From IMG/VR virus record IMGVR_UViG_2563366838_000011: a DNA stretch of 14,507 nt, one strand, 5' to 3'. The notes beneath the pieces are model-generated. The model was not told the DNA's origin. It ran no database searches and saw nothing but the letters and a program-made list of their open reading frames with translations. The DNA is from a virus. Lineage: Duplodnaviria; Heunggongvirae; Uroviricota; Caudoviricetes. Position numbers and translations under genes: made by a program. This document shows, piece after piece, positions 3,253-14,507 of the stretch (its first letter is position 1; every line of letters starts with the position of its first letter).

Positions 3253-3456
3253 ATGGCTAATTACAATTCATTAATTCGTCTCTCTGAAGTTCAAAGGCGA
3301 ACTGGTTATAGCAAAGCATGGATTTATCGTCTTATTAGTCAGGGGAGGTTCCCTAAACAGGTAAAAATTGGAAGTCGGGCAATTGCTTTTGTTGAGTCTG
3401 AAATAGATGAATGGATTGAGAAGTGTATATTAGAATCTAGAGACGAGGTGGCCTGA
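3253..3456 (+). CDS. alpA: AlpA-family phage transcriptional regulator (small HTH DNA-binding protein)
   Basis: 67-aa ORF with AGGA 9 nt upstream; sequence LIRLSEVQRRTGYSKAWIYRLISQGRFPKQVKIGSRAIAFVESEIDEWI matches the AlpA/prophage CP4-57 regulator pattern; sits second after int as in P4-like islands and PICIs. Confidence 0.85.
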   Translation: MANYNSLIRLSEVQRRTGYSKAWIYRLISQGRFPKQVKIGSRAIAFVESEIDEWIEKCILESRDEVA

Positions 3457-7542: not shown

Positions 7543-7906
7543 AAATGTAGAAATGGCGCTTAGCTCCGCAATCGGAGAGCAGGTGGCAAAGATTGCTGGT
7601 GCTGTGTGGATTCATAACCTTCATTCTACTGGTGAAGAGAAAATGGCAATTCAGACGCCAGAGGGACGCACCATTACTACATCTCTGAAGCCGTCAGATG
7701 TTTGTGATCTGATTTGCGCATTCATGTACCCAGCAATGAGGACTGTCCACGGCGATAAGTGGAAACTTGCGACAACCGCTGAATTTGATATGTGGCTAAA
7801 CAATGATGGCATGCTGACTGATTACGGAATAACCAAGTGGCAGATGCTAGTTAGCCATATCGCAAACGCTATAGACCACGTGGGGTACGGTGATGCGAAA
7901 CATTGA
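7535..7906 (+). CDS. hypothetical protein (123 aa)
   Basis: ATG at 7535 with GGGAGG upstream, overlaps the upstream stop by 8 nt and the primase start; no family recognised. Confidence 0.6.
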   Translation: MRENVEMALSSAIGEQVAKIAGAVWIHNLHSTGEEKMAIQTPEGRTITTSLKPSDVCDLICAFMYPAMRTVHGDKWKLATTAEFDMWLNNDGMLTDYGITKWQMLVSHIANAIDHVGYGDAKH

Positions 7907-10649
7907 TCTTATCCGTCAGGTTATCAGTGCGTCTGAAAACAACTGGCCTCATGTGCTGGGCTGCCTGAACATAAATGTCCCTGACTCTCCGCGCCGTCAT
8001 GCTCCCTGCCCTGCATGTGGGGGCAAAGATCGATTCCGGTTCGATGACAACGGGCGCGGTAGCTTCATCTGTAATCAGTGCGGCGCTGGTGATGGGCTGG
8101 ATTTAATTAAACGCGTAAATAACTGCGACACAACAGAGGCGGCGCTTCTTGCCGCTGATGTTCTGGGTATTGATTACCGGACAACGGAAACACCAGAAGC
8201 CACCAGCCAGAAACGGGAACAACTGGAAACCGAGCGCCAGCGACGCGAACAGGAGCGCCTGAAAAGGGCAGAGAAGGACGAACAACAAAGACGGGATACG
8301 TTTTCCCGTCAGTTTGATGACATGCGCAGAAAGGCTGTAAACGGCAAATCTGATTATCTGGTTGCGAAAGGGGTAGGTGATTTTACATTCCCCGTGTTGC
8401 CCGATGGATCTCTGTTGCTGGCGCTGGTGGATAAATCCGGCGCAGTAACAGCAGCACAGACTATTACCTCACATGGTGAAAAAAGACTCCTGACAGGTTC
8501 AGCAAAGCGAGGGGCATATCACGCCATAAACGCACCAGAAACAACACAGAGCATCTTAATCGCAGAAGGGCTGGCAACGGCATTATCTGCCCATTTAATG
8601 CGTCCAGAGGCGCTGACAGTGGCGGCGATTGATGCCGGGAACCTGTTATATGTCGCCCAGGTACTGCGGGATAAATTTCCTTCAGCACAAATCATCATTG
8701 CTGCGGATAACGACCACAGCGAAGGAAGACAAAACACGGGGAGAATAGCAGCAGAAAAAGCAGCTTTATCTGTTTCTGGATGGGTGGCATTACCCCCGAC
8801 AGATCACAAAGCAGACTGGAATGATTACCACCAAAAACACGGCATTAAATGCGCCACAGAAGCGTTCAATAAGTCAATGTACCAACCACAGGGTAATGGC
8901 GTGAAACAGGAGCCACAGACCATTGAGGGAAGCGATTTTAAGGTTATGGATACCGATCCACTGAAACCAAGAATAGAAAGCCGCGAGGATGGTATTTATT
9001 GGGTATCTCCGAGAGCTGACAGCCAGAGTGGAGAAATCATCAATAACGAAAGCTGGTTATGTTCTCCGTTAAGCGTTATCGGTACTGGCAGAGACGATAA
9101 AGACCAGTATCTCATTCTTCGCTGGCTGTCGTTTGGTTCTGAAACGCCGACAACCGCTGCCATTCCACTGGCTGATATTGGTGAACGTGAAGGATGGCGC
9201 ACACTTAAAGCTGGTGGGGTAAATGTCACGACCAAAAGCAGCCTCAGAGCAATACTGGCAGACTGGCTACAACGCAGTGGCTCTCGTGAATTGTGGCGTG
9301 TTGCTCATGCCACTGGCTGGCAATGCGGAGCGTACATCATGCCTGATGGGGAAATCATCGGAACACCTGAAAATCCTGTGCTGTTCAGCGGGAGAAGCTC
9401 AGCCGCAGCCGGATATACCGTCTCAGGGAGCGCGAAAAGCTGGCGTGATAACGTGGCGCGTCTGGCCTTTGGTAACTATTCAATGATGACCGGGATCGGC
9501 GCAGCACTGGCAGCGCCATTGATTGGGCTGGTGGGCGCTGACGGGTTCGGCATTCATTTCTATGAGCAGTCGAGCGCAGGTAAGACCACCACGGCAAACG
9601 TGGCGAGCAGCTTATACGGCAACCCTGATTTACTGCGGCTGACGTGGTACGGAACCGCGCTGGGGCTGGCAAATGAGGCCGCCGCCCACAATGACGGACT
9701 AATGCCGCTTGATGAAGTTGGTCAGGGCGCTGATCCTGTCAGCGTTTCACAGTCTGCCTATGCGTTATTTAACGGTGTAGGGAAACTGCAAGGCGCTAAA
9801 GATGGTGGAAACCGGGATCTAAAACGCTGGCGTACAGTGGCAATCAGCACCGGAGAAATGGATTTAGAAACATTTATCGCTACTTCCGGGCGAAAAACCA
9901 AAGCCGGGCAACTGGTGCGACTGCTGAATATTCCGTTGAGTAAAGCAGTACGCTTTCACGATTACCAGAACGGAAAACAGCACGCAGACGCACTGAAAGA
10001 CGCTTACCAGCATCACCACGGCGCGTCCGGGCGTGAGTGGATTAAATGGCTGGCAGACCACCAGCAACAGGCTATTAAAACCGTTCGTGACTGCGAAAGC
10101 AGATGGAGAAGCCTGATCCCATCCGATTATGGTGAGCAGGTTCACCGTGTAGCCGCGCGATTTGCCATTCTGGAGGCCGCATTGTTGTTAGGCGAGGTTG
10201 TAACAGGCTGGGATGCTCAGACATGCCGTGATGCGATACAGCACAGCTATAACGCATGGTTGCGCGAGTTCGGCACAGGTAACAAAGAGCATCAGCAGAT
10301 TATTGAACAAACGGAGGCATTTCTTAATGCCTATGGGCTTAGCCGTTTTGCACCATTTCCATACAGCCCGGCAGATTTGCCCATCAAAGATTTAGCCGGA
10401 TACCGTCAGCGTGGAGAACATGACGAAAGCCCAATGATTTTCTACACATTCCCGGCCACATTTGAAAAGGAGATCGCATGTGGTTTCAACGCAAAACAGT
10501 TTGCTGAAGTGTTGAAAAAAGCCGGGATGCTAACCCCACCAAACAGCGGTCGTGGATACCAAAGAAAATCACCACGTATTCAGGGACGACAAATAAACGT
10601 TTATGTACTCAATTACCAGCCAGGAGATTATAACTCATCTGAAGAATGA
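7893..10649 (+). CDS. primase-helicase replication protein (P4 alpha-like / PICI Pri-Rep): zinc-ribbon, TOPRIM and P-loop NTPase domains
   Basis: 918-919-aa ORF (ATG 7893, or GTG 7890 as in the track); Cys motif CPACGG...CNQCG; TOPRIM-like segment ILIAEGLATALS...IIIAADNDH; Walker A motif SSAGKTT near residue 555; iteron origin immediately downstream. Confidence 0.88.
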   Translation: MRNIDLIRQVISASENNWPHVLGCLNINVPDSPRRHAPCPACGGKDRFRFDDNGRGSFICNQCGAGDGLDLIKRVNNCDTTEAALLAADVLGIDYRTTETPEATSQKREQLETERQRREQERLKRAEKDEQQRRDTFSRQFDDMRRKAVNGKSDYLVAKGVGDFTFPVLPDGSLLLALVDKSGAVTAAQTITSHGEKRLLTGSAKRGAYHAINAPETTQSILIAEGLATALSAHLMRPEALTVAAIDAGNLLYVAQVLRDKFPSAQIIIAADNDHSEGRQNTGRIAAEKAALSVSGWVALPPTDHKADWNDYHQKHGIKCATEAFNKSMYQPQGNGVKQEPQTIEGSDFKVMDTDPLKPRIESREDGIYWVSPRADSQSGEIINNESWLCSPLSVIGTGRDDKDQYLILRWLSFGSETPTTAAIPLADIGEREGWRTLKAGGVNVTTKSSLRAILADWLQRSGSRELWRVAHATGWQCGAYIMPDGEIIGTPENPVLFSGRSSAAAGYTVSGSAKSWRDNVARLAFGNYSMMTGIGAALAAPLIGLVGADGFGIHFYEQSSAGKTTTANVASSLYGNPDLLRLTWYGTALGLANEAAAHNDGLMPLDEVGQGADPVSVSQSAYALFNGVGKLQGAKDGGNRDLKRWRTVAISTGEMDLETFIATSGRKTKAGQLVRLLNIPLSKAVRFHDYQNGKQHADALKDAYQHHHGASGREWIKWLADHQQQAIKTVRDCESRWRSLIPSDYGEQVHRVAARFAILEAALLLGEVVTGWDAQTCRDAIQHSYNAWLREFGTGNKEHQQIIEQTEAFLNAYGLSRFAPFPYSPADLPIKDLAGYRQRGEHDESPMIFYTFPATFEKEIACGFNAKQFAEVLKKAGMLTPPNSGRGYQRKSPRIQGRQINVYVLNYQPGDYNSSEE

Positions 10650-10674
10650 GCTTCTTCATGTGCGTAGAAAAGGT

Positions 10675-10785
10675 GTTGGTTCAGTTGGTTCAGTTGGTTC
10701 AATTTGTAAAGAGTATTGTTTTATAAGGATTTTATTCTTTTTATTGAACCAACACTGAACCAACAACACGGTATTTTGAACCAAC
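10675..10785 (+). repeat. iteron-type replication origin: three tandem GTTGGTTCA (10675-10701), 43-bp AT-rich spacer, three inverted copies TGAACCAAC (10745-10753, 10756-10764, 10777-10785)
   Basis: read directly from sequence; sits just 3' of the primase-helicase gene, the usual ori position in P4-like satellites and PICIs; the track ORFs overlapping it (10656-10895 minus, 10716-10967 plus) are probably spurious. Confidence 0.7.
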
Positions 10786-10836
10786 ACAATGTGACTGAAT
10801 TGATGCGCACAACACCTGGCTGGCATCAGAGAGTGT

Positions 10837-10911
10837 TTTACGAGACTTTCGTAAAATCCTGTGTACAAGGGCGTGACGTTTTTGAAAGTGAGCACTACGA
10901 AATTTTCGTAG
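10837..10911 (+). promoter_or_regulatory. two related dyads TTTACGA-N5-TCGTAAA (10837-10855) and CTACGAA-ATT-TTCGTAG (10895-10911); candidate operator pair
   Basis: 7-bp perfect inverted arms sharing an ACGA/TCGT core, about 58 bp apart, in the non-coding region between the ori and the downstream operon. Confidence 0.3.
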
Positions 10912-11105
10912 TTCAGAAAACAGCCTCTGAGAAGTTGTTATGCCTGTTCAGCAAACCATCCGCATAGCTGATCGCGAATCAAATTACCAATGGAGCCAGA
11001 AGCAAGGGCAGAACTGAAAAGCGCCTGCCGTGAAGAGTAATGCGACACCATAAATATAGTTTTTAGAGTCCATAAAAAACCTGTCAAAACCTGACACACA
11101 GAACG

Positions 11106-11138
11106 ATGCCACCAGCTACTGAGCGGTGGCATTTTTTT
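11106..11138 (+). terminator. rho-independent terminator (8-bp stem ATGCCACC / GGTGGCAT, 11-nt loop, then TTTTTTT)
   Basis: perfect 8-bp GC-rich stem at 11106-11113 / 11125-11132 followed by 7 T at 11132-11138; oriented for + strand transcripts. Confidence 0.55.
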
Positions 11139-11233
11139 GTGCTATTTGTTTCATATTTTGCAATTACGATGATGAATATTGCGATTTGTGAAACTATAAT
11201 AACTGTTGTTTTATACAGTTCTAAGGGGGCGTT

Positions 11234-11395
11234 ATGGCTATTTCAGTAAAGCCGGTATTGATAAGTGAGAAGCAAATGGAAGCGATAAAGAAAATTCAGG
11301 AAGAGCAGCGTAAAAAATCAGGAATTGGAGTAGCGCCAACTCTGCATGAAATTGCACGAGGGTTAATAGATAAGGCGCTGGCAGGCTGTATGTGA
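11234..11395 (+). CDS. small protein (53 aa), possible ribbon-helix-helix-type DNA-binding regulator
   Basis: not in the ORF track (below its length cutoff); ATG at 11234 with AAGGGGG upstream and a TATAAT box at 11195-11200; translation MAISVKPVLISEKQMEAIKKIQEEQRKKSGIGVAPTLHEIARGLIDKALAGCM has a strand-helix-helix layout compatible with an RHH fold (inference). Confidence 0.45.
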   Translation: MAISVKPVLISEKQMEAIKKIQEEQRKKSGIGVAPTLHEIARGLIDKALAGCM

Positions 11396-11411
11396 AAATG
11401 GATGGCATCGC

Positions 11412-11873
11412 ATGGAACTAAAATTTATTGATAACCCTGTGCGATTACAGGCCTTTCTTAACGAGCCAGGCAATACCGAAAATATTGTTGAGCCGGGGCA
11501 CACGTACTACATCAAGCCTGATGCGGTATATCTCGGCATCTACGAAGGATTAGTGCTGGCTGGCGTTCATGAAGTGCGTAACTTCTGGCATAGCGTTGTT
11601 GAATGCCATGCGGTGTACGACCCCGGATTCCGTGGTGAATATGCACTGCAAGGACATCGATTATTCTGCAAATGGCTTCTCGAAAACTCACCATTCCTTA
11701 ACAGCATCACTATGGTTCCTGACACCACGAAATACGGACGGGCAATTATCCGTTTGCTTGGCGCTACCCGTGTTGGTCACCTTGATGATGCTTATATCAG
11801 ATGTGGTAAACCCGTCGGCGTAACGCTTTATCAGTTAACTCGGCAACAATATAAGGAATTCAGCGAATGTTAA
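11412..11873 (+). CDS. hypothetical phage protein (153 aa), first gene of the virion-protein-like operon
   Basis: ATG at 11412, 17 nt after the small ORF; its stop overlaps the next start (ATGTTAA); no family recognised; occupies the position of P22 gp14 in a 14-7-20-16-like gene order (positional inference only). Confidence 0.6.
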   Translation: MELKFIDNPVRLQAFLNEPGNTENIVEPGHTYYIKPDAVYLGIYEGLVLAGVHEVRNFWHSVVECHAVYDPGFRGEYALQGHRLFCKWLLENSPFLNSITMVPDTTKYGRAIIRLLGATRVGHLDDAYIRCGKPVGVTLYQLTRQQYKEFSEC

Positions 11874-12544
11874 TTACCCATATAGCTCATAAACATCTCA
11901 ATCGTGCCGTATACGAAAAAGGCGGTGATGGTGGTGCCTCTAAAGCTCAGGCGAAGGCCCAGCAGCAGGCAATTGATTTGCAGCGCGAGCAGTGGAATAC
12001 GGTGATGAATAATCTCAAGCCGTATGCAGAAGTCGGATTGCCTGCTTTACAACAACTACAAGGACTGATGACTCTGGAAGGGCAGAATAAAGCCGCGAAT
12101 GATTTCTTTGGTTCTGGTTTATATAAAACACAGGCAGATCAGGCCCGTTATCAGAACCTTGTCTCAGCAGAAGCTACCGGGGGGCTTGGCTCAACAGCTA
12201 CCAGTAACCAGTTATCTTCCATTGCGCCCATGCTTTATAACAATTGGCTTAGTGGGCAAATGCAAAATTATGGAAACCTGCTAAATGTCGGGATGAATGC
12301 GGCATCAGGGCAGGCAACGGCAGGGCAAAACTACGCCAATAATACCGGACAACTCTTGCAGGGGCTTGGCGCTATTCGTGCAGGTCAGGCGCAGCAGCCA
12401 TCCAGTCTTGCGCGTGGTATTGGTGGGGCAGCATCAGGCGCTTTAGCGGGTGCGCAACTTGGTTCCGTTGTTCCTGGAATAGGAACTGCGGCCGGCGCTA
12501 TTGGTGGTGGGCTTATTGGTCTTGTTGGGGGGCTTGGATTCTAA
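11867..12544 (+). CDS. putative phage DNA-ejection/internal virion protein with C-terminal glycine-zipper segment
   Basis: 225-aa ORF with AAGGA upstream; Gln/Asn/Ala-rich middle; C-terminus GIGGAASGALAGAQLGSVVPGIGTAAGAIGGGLIGLVGGLGF made of GxxxG/GxxxA repeats typical of membrane-inserting glycine zippers; size and position resemble P22 gp7-type ejection proteins (inference). Confidence 0.6.
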   Translation: MLITHIAHKHLNRAVYEKGGDGGASKAQAKAQQQAIDLQREQWNTVMNNLKPYAEVGLPALQQLQGLMTLEGQNKAANDFFGSGLYKTQADQARYQNLVSAEATGGLGSTATSNQLSSIAPMLYNNWLSGQMQNYGNLLNVGMNAASGQATAGQNYANNTGQLLQGLGAIRAGQAQQPSSLARGIGGAASGALAGAQLGSVVPGIGTAAGAIGGGLIGLVGGLGF

Positions 12545-13863
12545 TGGCGACATGGCAACTTGGCGGGCTGCCTAGCATGGCACCGCAAAATGATAATGCT
12601 CCTCGTTCTTCCGTTCCTCAGCCTGTGCAGTATCAGCAGCAGCCAAACGTAGGTTTAATGGCGCTACAGGGGCTAAGAGGCGTTGCTGAGATTAATCAGC
12701 AGGCGCAAATTTCCCAGCAGCTAAAAGAATATCAGGCACGGTTGGGTAGTGCGGTAGCTAATAATGATCGTGTTGGCGTGCATAAGTTAATGGCCCAGTA
12801 TCCCCAGTTTATGGCTGATTCTCAAAAACAGATGGGATTCATTGATGCTGAGCAAAATCGGCAGACCGCTGACGCTGCCATGAATCTGCGTCTTGCGTCA
12901 CAAACTGGAGATCCACTGACCATGCAGAAGGCCATTCAGCAGGCAAATCCAGTATTACAGCGATTTGGTCTTCCTGCTGAAGAGGTTTATCAGTCTTGGC
13001 AGAATGACCCACAGGAATTCAACAGAATCACTGACCTCATCCACCTCCATGCTGATCCAAATAGTTACTTTAGTGTTCAAGAGAAGCAGCAAGGGCAGAG
13101 TATTGCACAGCAGAACGCAGATACATCTGCATATAATGCTCAGGTTAATGCGGAGCAGGGTAATCGGCGGCTCGATATGGAGCAGTTCAAAGTCCTATCC
13201 GATAACCAACTACGCACGAGAGAAATGGTTCTGAAAGCACGACTTGGACGTGCTCAAAATGACATCGAGAGAGACAAGCTCAATGCTGAACTGAGCAAGG
13301 TACAGCAGGCGAAAGTGGAGAAGATGAACGATAAAATTAATACTGTTGCAGGTAATATCGACTCCTTGAACTCTGCGCTTGAAGTGGGTCATGAACTGGC
13401 GGGAATTGTAGGGAAACATCCTTCGGCCGTTACCCGTTCGCAGAACTATAACCCCCTGACGCTGGGGTTTGGATTCCTCCCTGATGTAGCAGAAGACACA
13501 CGAAGCCTACGCGCCAAAGCTGATGAATACAACCTAAAGGTTATTCTGCCTAGCCTAAAAGGTACTTTTGGCTCTAACCCAACCGAAGGGGAAAGGGCTG
13601 CCCTTATGCAATCTCAAAATGGCATTAAGTCAGCAACCAGCAATGAGGCATTTTTGCGAGAGTTGAATAAAGCGCAGGACGTAATTATTCGAATGCAGAA
13701 ACGACAGATTGCCGGGCTCGGTATTCCTGTAACCAAATCTAAGGACGAAGAAACTGATACCAAAATGCTGTTGCAGGATCCTTCACTGGTTAAGGATTAT
13801 GTGACCGCACATGGCTATCTGCCGGAAAGTTACTATCAGGCAAAACTTAAGGGATGGCAATGA
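12544..13863 (+). CDS. putative phage ejection/internal virion protein, Gln-rich coiled-coil protein (439 aa)
   Basis: start overlaps the upstream stop (TAATG); very Gln/Ala/Asn-rich with heptad-like charged stretches (LRTREMVLKARLGRAQNDIERDKLNAELSKVQQAKVEKMNDKIN); no family recognised; positional analog of P22 gp20 or T7 gp15 (inference). Confidence 0.6.
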   Translation: MATWQLGGLPSMAPQNDNAPRSSVPQPVQYQQQPNVGLMALQGLRGVAEINQQAQISQQLKEYQARLGSAVANNDRVGVHKLMAQYPQFMADSQKQMGFIDAEQNRQTADAAMNLRLASQTGDPLTMQKAIQQANPVLQRFGLPAEEVYQSWQNDPQEFNRITDLIHLHADPNSYFSVQEKQQGQSIAQQNADTSAYNAQVNAEQGNRRLDMEQFKVLSDNQLRTREMVLKARLGRAQNDIERDKLNAELSKVQQAKVEKMNDKINTVAGNIDSLNSALEVGHELAGIVGKHPSAVTRSQNYNPLTLGFGFLPDVAEDTRSLRAKADEYNLKVILPSLKGTFGSNPTEGERAALMQSQNGIKSATSNEAFLRELNKAQDVIIRMQKRQIAGLGIPVTKSKDEETDTKMLLQDPSLVKDYVTAHGYLPESYYQAKLKGWQ

Positions 13864-14370
13864 TGGCACAACTGACAGAAAAACAGAAAGCCTATTCCCG
13901 TCATCTCGATGAAAAATATGGTTTCCCATCAGGGACGATGGAAACATTAGTTGGCAATGAATCTAGTGGTAACGGAAGTGCCGAGTCACCGAAAGGAGCT
14001 AGAGGATTTGCTCAACTGATGCCCTCAGTAATGAGTGATGCTGGTTATCGTGGAACAGATCCGCGCTCACTGCCATTTGAAAAGCAAATGGATATCGCAG
14101 CAAACCATCTCAATAAAGGAATGAAGCGATTTGGTGATATAGGTATGGCATTGGCTGGGTATAATTCTGGCTATGCTCGTATTAATGCCGTAAGAAACGG
14201 TAAATCTACACTGCCAGATGAAACGGCTAATTACGTAAGTAAATTTGCAGATGCCGGAATAATCCCTGATGACAGTGAAATCTTGCAGTTTGCACAAACC
14301 AGTCAACATCGCAATCTTCAGCAGCCTGACTACTCAGAGCTTGATAAAGAAATCTCTCAGGTGGGAGATA
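13860..14370 (+). CDS. lytic transglycosylase (SLT) domain protein, N-terminal part of a phage internal virion/ejection-type protein, interrupted by an IS insertion
   Basis: ATG at 13860 (AAGGG 6 nt upstream, overlaps the upstream stop); SLT family-1 motifs in order: ES in VGNESSGN, GFAQLMP, AGYNSGY; the frame runs without a stop into the IS terminus at 14371, so the native 3' part is displaced. Confidence 0.6.
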
Positions 14371-14507
14371 TGAACCGCCCCGGGTTTCCTGGAGAGTGTT
14401 TTATCTGTGAACTCAGGCTGCCAGATCATCGTTTCCGATGGAAGCATAATAAGCTTTTTCTGCTTCTGCCGGAGGAGTATGGCCCAGCCTTTCCAGCAAT
14501 CGTCGAT
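14371..14507 (-). mobile_element. IS3-family insertion sequence terminus (IS629/IS1203-like), partial, continues beyond the window
   Basis: sequence from 14371 (TGAACCGCCCCGGGTTTCCTGGAGAGTG...) matches my recollection of the IS629 terminal inverted repeat; the minus strand encodes a typical IS3-family OrfB C-terminus. Confidence 0.7.
14413..14507 (-). CDS. IS3-family transposase OrfB, C-terminal fragment (5' end outside the window)
   Basis: minus-strand translation ends ...RRLLERLGHTPPAEAEKAYYASIGNDDLAA with stop TGA (complement of 14413-14415). Confidence 0.7.
   Translation of the reverse strand, partial: RRLLERLGHTPPAEAEKAYYASIGNDDLAA

Follow-up and report, generated by a model that had tools for sequence, protein, structure and literature searches.

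The six 9-bp repeats between positions 10675 and 10785 of the DNA analysed here (14,507 nucleotides, hereafter the window) are probably the cognate replication origin of Pri-Rep, the primase-helicase of a Gram-negative PICI-type satellite island; comparison of sequences leads us to put the probability of this reading at about 0.8. A primase-helicase-loaded iteron origin had been proposed for this site in an initial annotation, and the proposal is now supported by an architecture conserved in approximately 50 related elements, by co-variation of the iterons with the C-terminal tail of Pri-Rep, and by the homology of Pri-Rep to SaPIbov1 Rep and Cch. It should be noted that both the type of origin and the protein family are already known from staphylococcal islands, and that the layout is known from other Gram-negative PICIs. 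The reading would assign a function to a conserved non-coding block of ~6-10% of complete E. coli genomes and many other Enterobacterales, and would extend the SaPI-type combination of a self-loading initiator-helicase and an iteron ori to a TOPRIM-DUF927 fusion in Gram-negative satellites.

The iteron array and the Pri-Rep gene

The features of the array and of the gene that precedes it are:

7893-10649, + strand: Pri-Rep gene, starting at ATG 7893; its product, 918 aa long, is a fused primase-helicase-initiator
10335-10622, + strand: C-terminal winged-helix-like domain (approximately residues 816-911), the putative iteron-binding domain
10563-10601, + strand: predicted beta-hairpin 'wing', residues 892-904 (RKSPRIQGRQINV), with the candidate specificity residues that co-vary with iteron class
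10657-10667, + strand: CATGTGCGTAG box, just 5' of the first iteron; relatives have CACATGCGTAG or CACRTG, and in alignments the box is kept whatever the iteron class
10675-10701, + strand: left iteron set, three tandem GTTGGTTCA with a 9-bp period
10702-10744, no strand: 43-bp spacer of 84% A+T, presumed to be where melting occurs; contains the conserved TTGTTTTATAAGG
10745-10785, - strand: right iteron set, three TGAACCAAC at 10745, 10756 and 10777
10815-10825, + strand: CCTGGCTGGCA motif, conserved 3' of the right iteron set in every iteron class, and present beside the iterons of an unrelated replicase cassette as well

Both the sequence itself and a repeat finder give the direct copies of GTTGGTTCA as an exact 9-bp tandem starting at 10675, 10684 and 10693, followed by the A+T-rich stretch and the three copies of its reverse complement TGAACCAAC, as initially described. 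These six are the only exact copies in the whole 14.5-kb window. With one mismatch or fewer allowed, the window contains 9 matches against 3.4 expected, a number reached by 0 of 200 dinucleotide-preserving shuffles. The array is held in a non-coding stretch of 585 bp between the primase-helicase gene and a small ORF, and its first iteron lies 26 bp past the stop codon of the former (10647-10649), in agreement with the position directly 3' of the replication gene that had been claimed for it. The 'irregular spacing' ascribed to the inverted copies needs revision: start to start they are 11 and 21 bp apart, i.e. approximately one and two helical turns, and since nearly all relatives keep these distances the copies are phased, not irregular.

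The array is a strong inverted repeat (ssDNA fold z = -7.35). It is for this reason that an Rfam scan of 10500-11450 matched plant microRNA hairpins, only by chance and below threshold, and the reading of the region as a known RNA was rejected. Searches of the window for the DnaA-box and IHF consensus sequences found neither which, as weak negative evidence, fits a self-loading origin that is independent of host initiators.

A hairpin across the primase stop codon, also described in the initial annotation, is indeed present on the + strand (GAAGAA-TGAGC-TTCTTC, 10641-10657), but its significance is not borne out: with an RNA dG of -9.7 kcal/mol (z = -0.81), it is matched in folding by 35 of 200 shuffles. 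Its 5' arm corresponds to the Glu-Glu codons of the acidic C-terminus, no T-run follows 3' of it, and a terminator scan made no call at this position. The hairpin was thus rejected as a terminator or other feature.

Pri-Rep is named 'TOPRIM and DUF927 domain-containing protein' in RefSeq and has Pfam matches to Zn_Ribbon_Prim, Toprim_3 and DUF927. Residue numbers given here count GTG 7890, the ORF start set by the program, as residue 1, and the RefSeq number is one lower. With the primase domain of phage P4 alpha, Pri-Rep shares 33% identity over residues 8-362 (E 4e-34). Its residues 403-814 match PDB 8TCH, the SaPIbov1 Rep initiator-helicase (E 1.4e-11), as well as 5DGK (SCCmec Cch), and the C-terminal domain also matches SaPIbov1 Rep. 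DUF927 helicases have been grouped with Cch and SaPIbov1 Rep (PMC10061031), and the helicase and C-terminal domain of Pri-Rep belong to this family of initiator-helicases. Searches of phage databases gave nothing relevant at the DNA level and partial homologues at the protein level, the best known of which is the P4 alpha primase domain. In the window the pri-rep ORF is intact, and its product is identical to a cluster of proteins that has 2326 members. In E. coli DLI.6n (L080 7993-12062), an IS3-family element interrupts pri-rep, and some copies of the island would therefore be replication-defective.

The C-terminal 178 residues were modelled with 46 diverse homologues taken from a representative search (pLDDT 92.3), an earlier model from a 12-sequence alignment (pLDDT 51) having been unusable. 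In the predicted model, the residues that co-vary with the iterons sit in a beta-hairpin, or 'wing', after two short helices, and residues 892-904 are thereby predicted to lie in a DNA-contacting wing.

Conservation of the array and co-variation with the primase tail

In order to follow the array in relatives, we used a scan based on primase alignment with one genome per species, which gave 68 loci that are 43-99% identical and nearly all from Enterobacterales. Approximately 50 related elements, from many genera of this order, show the same architecture 3' of a homologous primase gene, and the iteron cluster occurs with the same layout in nearly every locus in which the 3' end of the primase gene is intact. 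The distance from the stop codon to the first iteron is 23-30 bp in most of these ~50 relatives and no more than 83 bp in the most divergent. The tandem set usually has three slots, the middle one often degenerate, and is followed by a spacer of ~43 bp containing TTGaTTTATAAGG, by three inverted iterons (11 and 21 bp apart), and then by CTGGCTGG.

Conservation is concentrated in the iterons. Among the 26 elements that carry the iteron of the window (class A), the iteron slots are 98% identical vs. 69% for the spacer and 61% for other positions; slot by slot, conservation is 92-100% in the left set and 98-100% in the right. The spacer is exactly 43 bp long in 24 of the 26, with an A+T content of 65-86%. 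Three motifs outside the iterons are kept in every iteron class, namely: CCTGGCTGGCA, CA(C)ATGCGTAG and TTGTTTTATAAGG (10815-10825, 10657-10667 and 10714-10726 of the window, respectively). The CTGGCTGG element includes two CTG triplets. CTG is the preferred start site of DnaG-type primases, and any bearing of this on CTGGCTGG is speculative.

Many relatives have a longer, contiguous array of 10-12 iterons over ~260 bp, which goes on with two further inverted iterons and a direct one, then with a G+C-rich motif (CCCAG..TGGCGCGG) and a tandem set of three inverted iterons. The window corresponds to the left half of the long array only, i.e. a short form with six iterons, and since long arrays are common its copy could be a truncated, less active origin. 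The six-iteron short form is found with identical geometry in Lonsdalea, Pantoea, Erwinia, Rosenbergiella, Serratia, Leclercia, Cedecea and Pectobacterium.

Within E. coli, 558 of 5426 complete genomes match the 701-bp region around the repeats, 344 of them over its full length (~6-10%), and the left set has three or four copies of GTTGGTTCA depending on the strain. Four tandem copies, a gain of 9 bp, are found in strain Combat13F7 (L002 546-581; also H43). In some strains, such as E143 (L003 783-1241; also H47), a hypothetical-protein gene of ~460 bp is inserted between the iterons and the late module. The possibility that the repeats are part of a coding sequence in relatives, raised in the initial annotation as an objection to an origin, is ruled out by this additional 9-bp copy together with the indels of 1 and 2 nt in the iteron region of relatives and the absence of any RefSeq gene over the repeats.

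A few loci are of unusual provenance or structure. Yersinia pekkanenii (L037) has three iteron clusters in 6 kb (8154-8421, 12736-13003 and 13917-14214) next to a frame-disrupted primase match, and may contain a tandem or rearranged set of islands. An assembly titled Chryseobacterium sp. 18061, and thus labelled Bacteroidota, has primase loci of Enterobacterales type (L009 and L064; 68-78% identical) with class-A iterons, which probably reflects contamination or mislabelling of the assembly.

The relatives fall into seven iteron classes, namely: TGAACCAAC, which is the majority class; TGAGACAACA; TAACCCGT; TGAACCGAC; AAAACCGAC; TTATCCCA; and TGAAACCAC / TGAAACCCAT. The iterons of Buttiauxella and Scandinavium (L059, L061 and L068), TTATCCCA / TGGGATAA, resemble the DnaA box TTATCCACA. 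When long origins are aligned, all 10-12 slots switch class together and the non-iteron motifs remain unchanged.

The initial annotation had suggested comparing iteron and primase sequences across related islands for co-variation, and the outcome is positive: in the aligned sequences, iteron class tracks a few residues (892-897) of the C-terminal tail of the primase. In an alignment of 45 primase ORFs, positions 892, 893, 894 and 897 are the only ones at which four of four class-B proteins have a residue in common that none of 29 class-A proteins has, counts that come from related sequences and not from independent events, three of the four class-B C-terminal domains being identical. The hexapeptide reads R-K-S-P-R-I in class A vs. 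G-R-V-(gap)-R-E in class B. Protein-wide, class-B proteins have 8-11 substitutions foreign to class A, and four of these fall within residues 892-897. Ser894 is present in all 31 class-A proteins and in none of the 14 others, and column 894 has the highest mutual information with iteron class, followed by 895, 903 and 892.

The tripeptide 892-894 is RKS in class A, GRV in B, RKT in D, KKT in E, SRT in F and VLT in G, and is variable in class C. A change of a single iteron base, CCAAC to CCGAC, accompanies S894T in two separate lineages. If these correspondences amount to a specificity code, RKS would read CCAAC, RKT would read CCGAC and GRV would read the GACAAC-type iteron. Replacement of RKSPRI by GRV-RE would then shift specificity from GTTGGTTCA to TGTTGTCTC iterons, and S894T would shift it to GTCGGTTCA. 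With such a code, one could predict whether co-resident islands cross-replicate or are incompatible, or build orthogonal replicons.

Island context, cassette exchange and a mirrored iteron unit

All genes of the window are on one strand, in the order proA, tRNA-Thr(CGU), tyrosine integrase, AlpA, AntA, DUF4222, Ash, small ORFs and the primase-helicase. On the 3' side of the latter come the non-coding stretch, the small ORF and homologues of P22 ejection genes (DUF2824, gp7 homologue and injectosome translocase). Two of the upstream genes are:

1610-2824, + strand: integrase, adjoining tRNA-Thr
3253-3456, + strand: AlpA (PF05930, E 7e-20)

In E. coli NCTC9040, the island extends from thrW to ~20 kb downstream, and the same module is found at yicC-dinD with a different integrase. 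In the published plan of Gram-negative PICIs (PMC6092414, PMC10111431), int and alpA are accompanied by a 'Bro zone', by replication genes whose ori lies downstream of pri, and by a 'late zone' made up of late genes captured from prophages. The island has the unidirectional integrase, AlpA and pri-rep genes, the specific att site and the size (~10-20 kb) of this group; by its gene content, the island integrated at thrW is of the Gram-negative PICI type. Positions 11412-14507 encode DUF2824, the gp7 homologue, the injectosome translocase and a gp16-like lytic transglycosylase, and the island is without capsid, terminase and tail genes. As a set of captured late genes this is unusual, and its likeness to P22 hints at a P22-like helper. 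Two palindromes with a common half-site, TTTTACGAGACTTTCGTAAAA (10836-10856) and ACTACGAAATTTTCGTAGT (10894-10912), are separated by 57 bp within the late-module leader and belong to a module that is common to islands with another replicase; in appearance they resemble the operators of a dimeric regulator.

The island of E. coli ECONIH1 shares its upstream genes and late module with the window, and has a DUF5906 replicase in place of the TOPRIM-DUF927 gene (L078 3318-7000 vs. 7893-10828 of the window). This replicase is followed by iterons of its own, ACCT[AG]TACCA, at L078 5699-5802 and 6809-6912. 'TTCTTCTGGCTGGC' follows these iterons, and the CTGGCTGG motif stands beside the iterons in both cassettes. 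Homology between the window and islands carrying another replicase resumes at 10829-10835. With ECONIH1, homology picks up again at 10829; replicase gene and iterons (up to ~10826) therefore behave as a single exchangeable unit. In these alignments, CCTGGCTGGCA marks the right end of the replication cassette, with the junction at ~10826-10829.

The same island has a second iteron unit, a mirror image of the first, ~8.2 kb downstream of it and outside the window. It was located at:

L075 32839-32959: mirrored unit in E. coli NCTC9040 (thrW)
L001 22418-22538: mirrored unit in strain cq9

In the mirrored unit, three GTTGGTTCA spaced 21 bp apart are separated by an AT-rich spacer from three TGAACCAAC in tandem. 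The unit ends ~45 bp before a perC-family gene, and the two units bracket the P22-like late genes. A distal unit is found in nine short-origin loci, from Cedecea, Leclercia, Rosenbergiella, Chimaeribacter, Pantoea, Lonsdalea and Serratia, and is absent from the long-origin loci. In E. coli, perC-linked GTTGGTTCA units are also found without a nearby DUF927 primase (L004, L005, L006 6011-6130, and L079 1030-1150). These orphan units occur in island remnants and in one island with a different replicase, and in them the iterons are exact and the spacer has diverged. Since such units persist without a DUF927 gene, the iterons can outlive a cis-encoded primase or act independently of it.

A split origin, in which Pri-Rep would bind both the unit after pri-rep and a mirror unit 5-9 kb downstream, and the two would cooperate, for example by looping in the manner of P4 ori and crr or by serving as two opposed origins, is a tentative reading that we regard as doubtful. 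If true, it would be a new origin architecture for satellites and the interval between the units would be a preferred site of cargo capture; residues 892-897 of the wing would likewise be a simple, engineerable code of protein-DNA recognition.

Alternative readings and comparison with known systems

The mirrored unit also bears on whether the iterons are operators, through which the C-terminal domain of Pri-Rep or another island protein would mainly regulate transcription without initiating replication, with either pri-rep (autoregulation through read-through) or the downstream late or perC genes as targets. In the mirrored unit and in the long arrays, terminal tandem iterons lie ~45 bp upstream of the next gene start, with a conserved T-rich/TATA-like stretch (CTATTTCTGCTTAT, TTGCTTATCTATATAAT) after them, and islands that lack the DUF927 gene keep the perC-linked unit. 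Autoregulation is also common among initiators of iteron replicons, a point that counts for this explanation. We nevertheless consider it unlikely: no sigma-70 consensus promoter was found in or near the iterons of the window, the perC unit or one long array; the array of the window sits after pri-rep, not before it; and the fixed 43-bp A+T-rich spacer between opposed sets has the geometry of a melting region. Moreover, Pri-Rep is a homologue of helicase-initiators, and the roles of operator and origin are compatible. That the array is instead a decayed or inactive remnant of a longer origin, which would have lost its right half on capture of the P22-like late module and would owe its conservation to recent descent only, appears quite improbable. 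Homology to the 10-12-iteron arrays does end right after CCTGGCTGGCA, at ~10826, where the late module begins, and the primase gene is IS-disrupted in some strains; however, the short form has identical geometry in many genera with iterons 98% conserved, two iterons per side suffice in SaPI origins (PMC9371898), and pri-rep is intact in the window.

Other DNA transactions, such as a packaging pac/cos site, integrase/excisionase arm sites or an inversion site, as well as chance slippage repeats or a small gene, are readings that we consider very improbable. The strength of the inverted repeat (z = -7.35 as folded ssDNA) speaks for a site of this sort, and a mirrored copy ~8 kb away could in principle permit inversion. 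Yet the same iterons occur with two integrases and at two att sites (thrW and yicC-dinD), co-vary with the tail of the primase and not with the integrase, and move with the replicase gene as one cassette. A small gene or chance repeats are at odds with the lack of a RefSeq CDS over the iterons and with the 1-2-nt indels and the 9-bp changes in copy number among relatives, and the Rfam matches are confined to the sub-threshold plant microRNA hairpins.

The preferred reading, an origin cognate to Pri-Rep, takes its mechanism from the SaPIs. SaPI Reps recognise iterons via a winged-helix domain within the C-terminal domain and need no loader; in their origins, 6-12 iterons directly follow rep and are arranged around an AT-rich centre, with two or more on each side in opposite orientation (PMC9371898). 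The island has the corresponding elements: a putative ori directly 3' of pri-rep, 3 + 3 opposed iterons flanking an AT-rich spacer, and a candidate initiator that is a helicase with a C-terminal winged-helix-like domain. By this analogy we infer origin function, iteron binding, melting and helicase loading. Via its C-terminal winged-helix-like domain, Pri-Rep would bind the 9-bp iterons to the left and right of the spacer, with wing residues ~892-904 reading the iteron sequence, and the oppositely oriented protein assemblies on the two sets would melt the 43-bp A+T-rich spacer. Self-loading of the DUF927 helicase, independent of DnaA and DnaC, would follow, and the first primers would be made by the fused TOPRIM primase.

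The island differs from the SaPI systems (SaPIbov1 Rep, 8TCH; SaPI1 and SaPI5, PMC9371898; SCCmec Cch, 5DGK) in its Gram-negative host, in its iterons, which are 9-10 bp long in this family vs. 5-6 bp in SaPIs, and in the fusion of the helicase to a Zn-ribbon/TOPRIM primase related to P4 alpha. In addition, many relatives have contiguous arrays of 10-12 iterons with extra conserved non-iteron motifs, and some, this island included, have the second mirrored unit kilobases away.

Among Gram-negative PICIs, EcCICFT073 is the closest point of reference, its pri-rep-ori having been found to drive the replication of a plasmid (Fillol-Salom et al. 2018, PMC6092414). The two islands are alike in having an integrase, AlpA, unidirectional genes, pri-rep, ori, accessory/late genes and perC cargo, with the ori 3' of pri-rep and two iteron sets flanking an AT-rich region. 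In contrast, EcCICFT073 Pri-Rep is a 584-aa D5_N/DUF5906/Pox_D5 protein without detectable similarity to the Pri-Rep studied here (BLASTP E > 1), and its iterons are GGTAGACAG-like, unlike GTTGGTTCA. The replicase of EcCIRM13514 is a protein of ~607 aa annotated as 'DNA primase family'. Identity with the published Gram-negative PICI replicases was thus rejected, the EcCICFT073 protein being unrelated and that of EcCIRM13514 a ~600-aa 'DNA primase family' protein. In the literature text searched, neither the TOPRIM-DUF927 allele nor the GTTGGTTCA iterons are described, and matches to the iteron sequence there were unrelated.

P4 alpha resembles Pri-Rep in being a fused primase-helicase-origin-binding protein with a homologous N-terminal primase domain. 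P4 has short (8-9 bp) iterons, both direct and inverted, and its ori and crr iteron clusters are several kb apart. The island likewise has two iteron clusters several kb apart (P4 ori/crr are mentioned in PMC6092414). A role of the distal perC unit as a strict crr-like partner of Pri-Rep is weakened by ECONIH1, which keeps the unit with a different replicase; as the distal cluster is retained in islands without this primase, a crr-like requirement is unsupported. The similarity to P4 alpha is confined to residues 8-362, the helicase being DUF927/SaPIbov1-Rep-like and the iteron sequence different, and Pri-Rep lacks the P4 alpha-type combination of primase, D5-type helicase and type I iteron-binding C-terminus.

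Classical plasmid iteron origins (RepA/pi/RepE) have direct repeats of 17-22 bp, DnaA boxes, IHF sites and an initiator that is not a helicase. The window differs from them in having 9-bp iterons in both orientations, no DnaA or IHF consensus and a helicase-bearing initiator. Finally, the complex of TcpK with oriT of plasmid pCW3 (PDB 5VFX) offers a resemblance in fold only, at 8% identity, TcpK being a relaxosome accessory protein that acts at a transfer origin and not an initiator.
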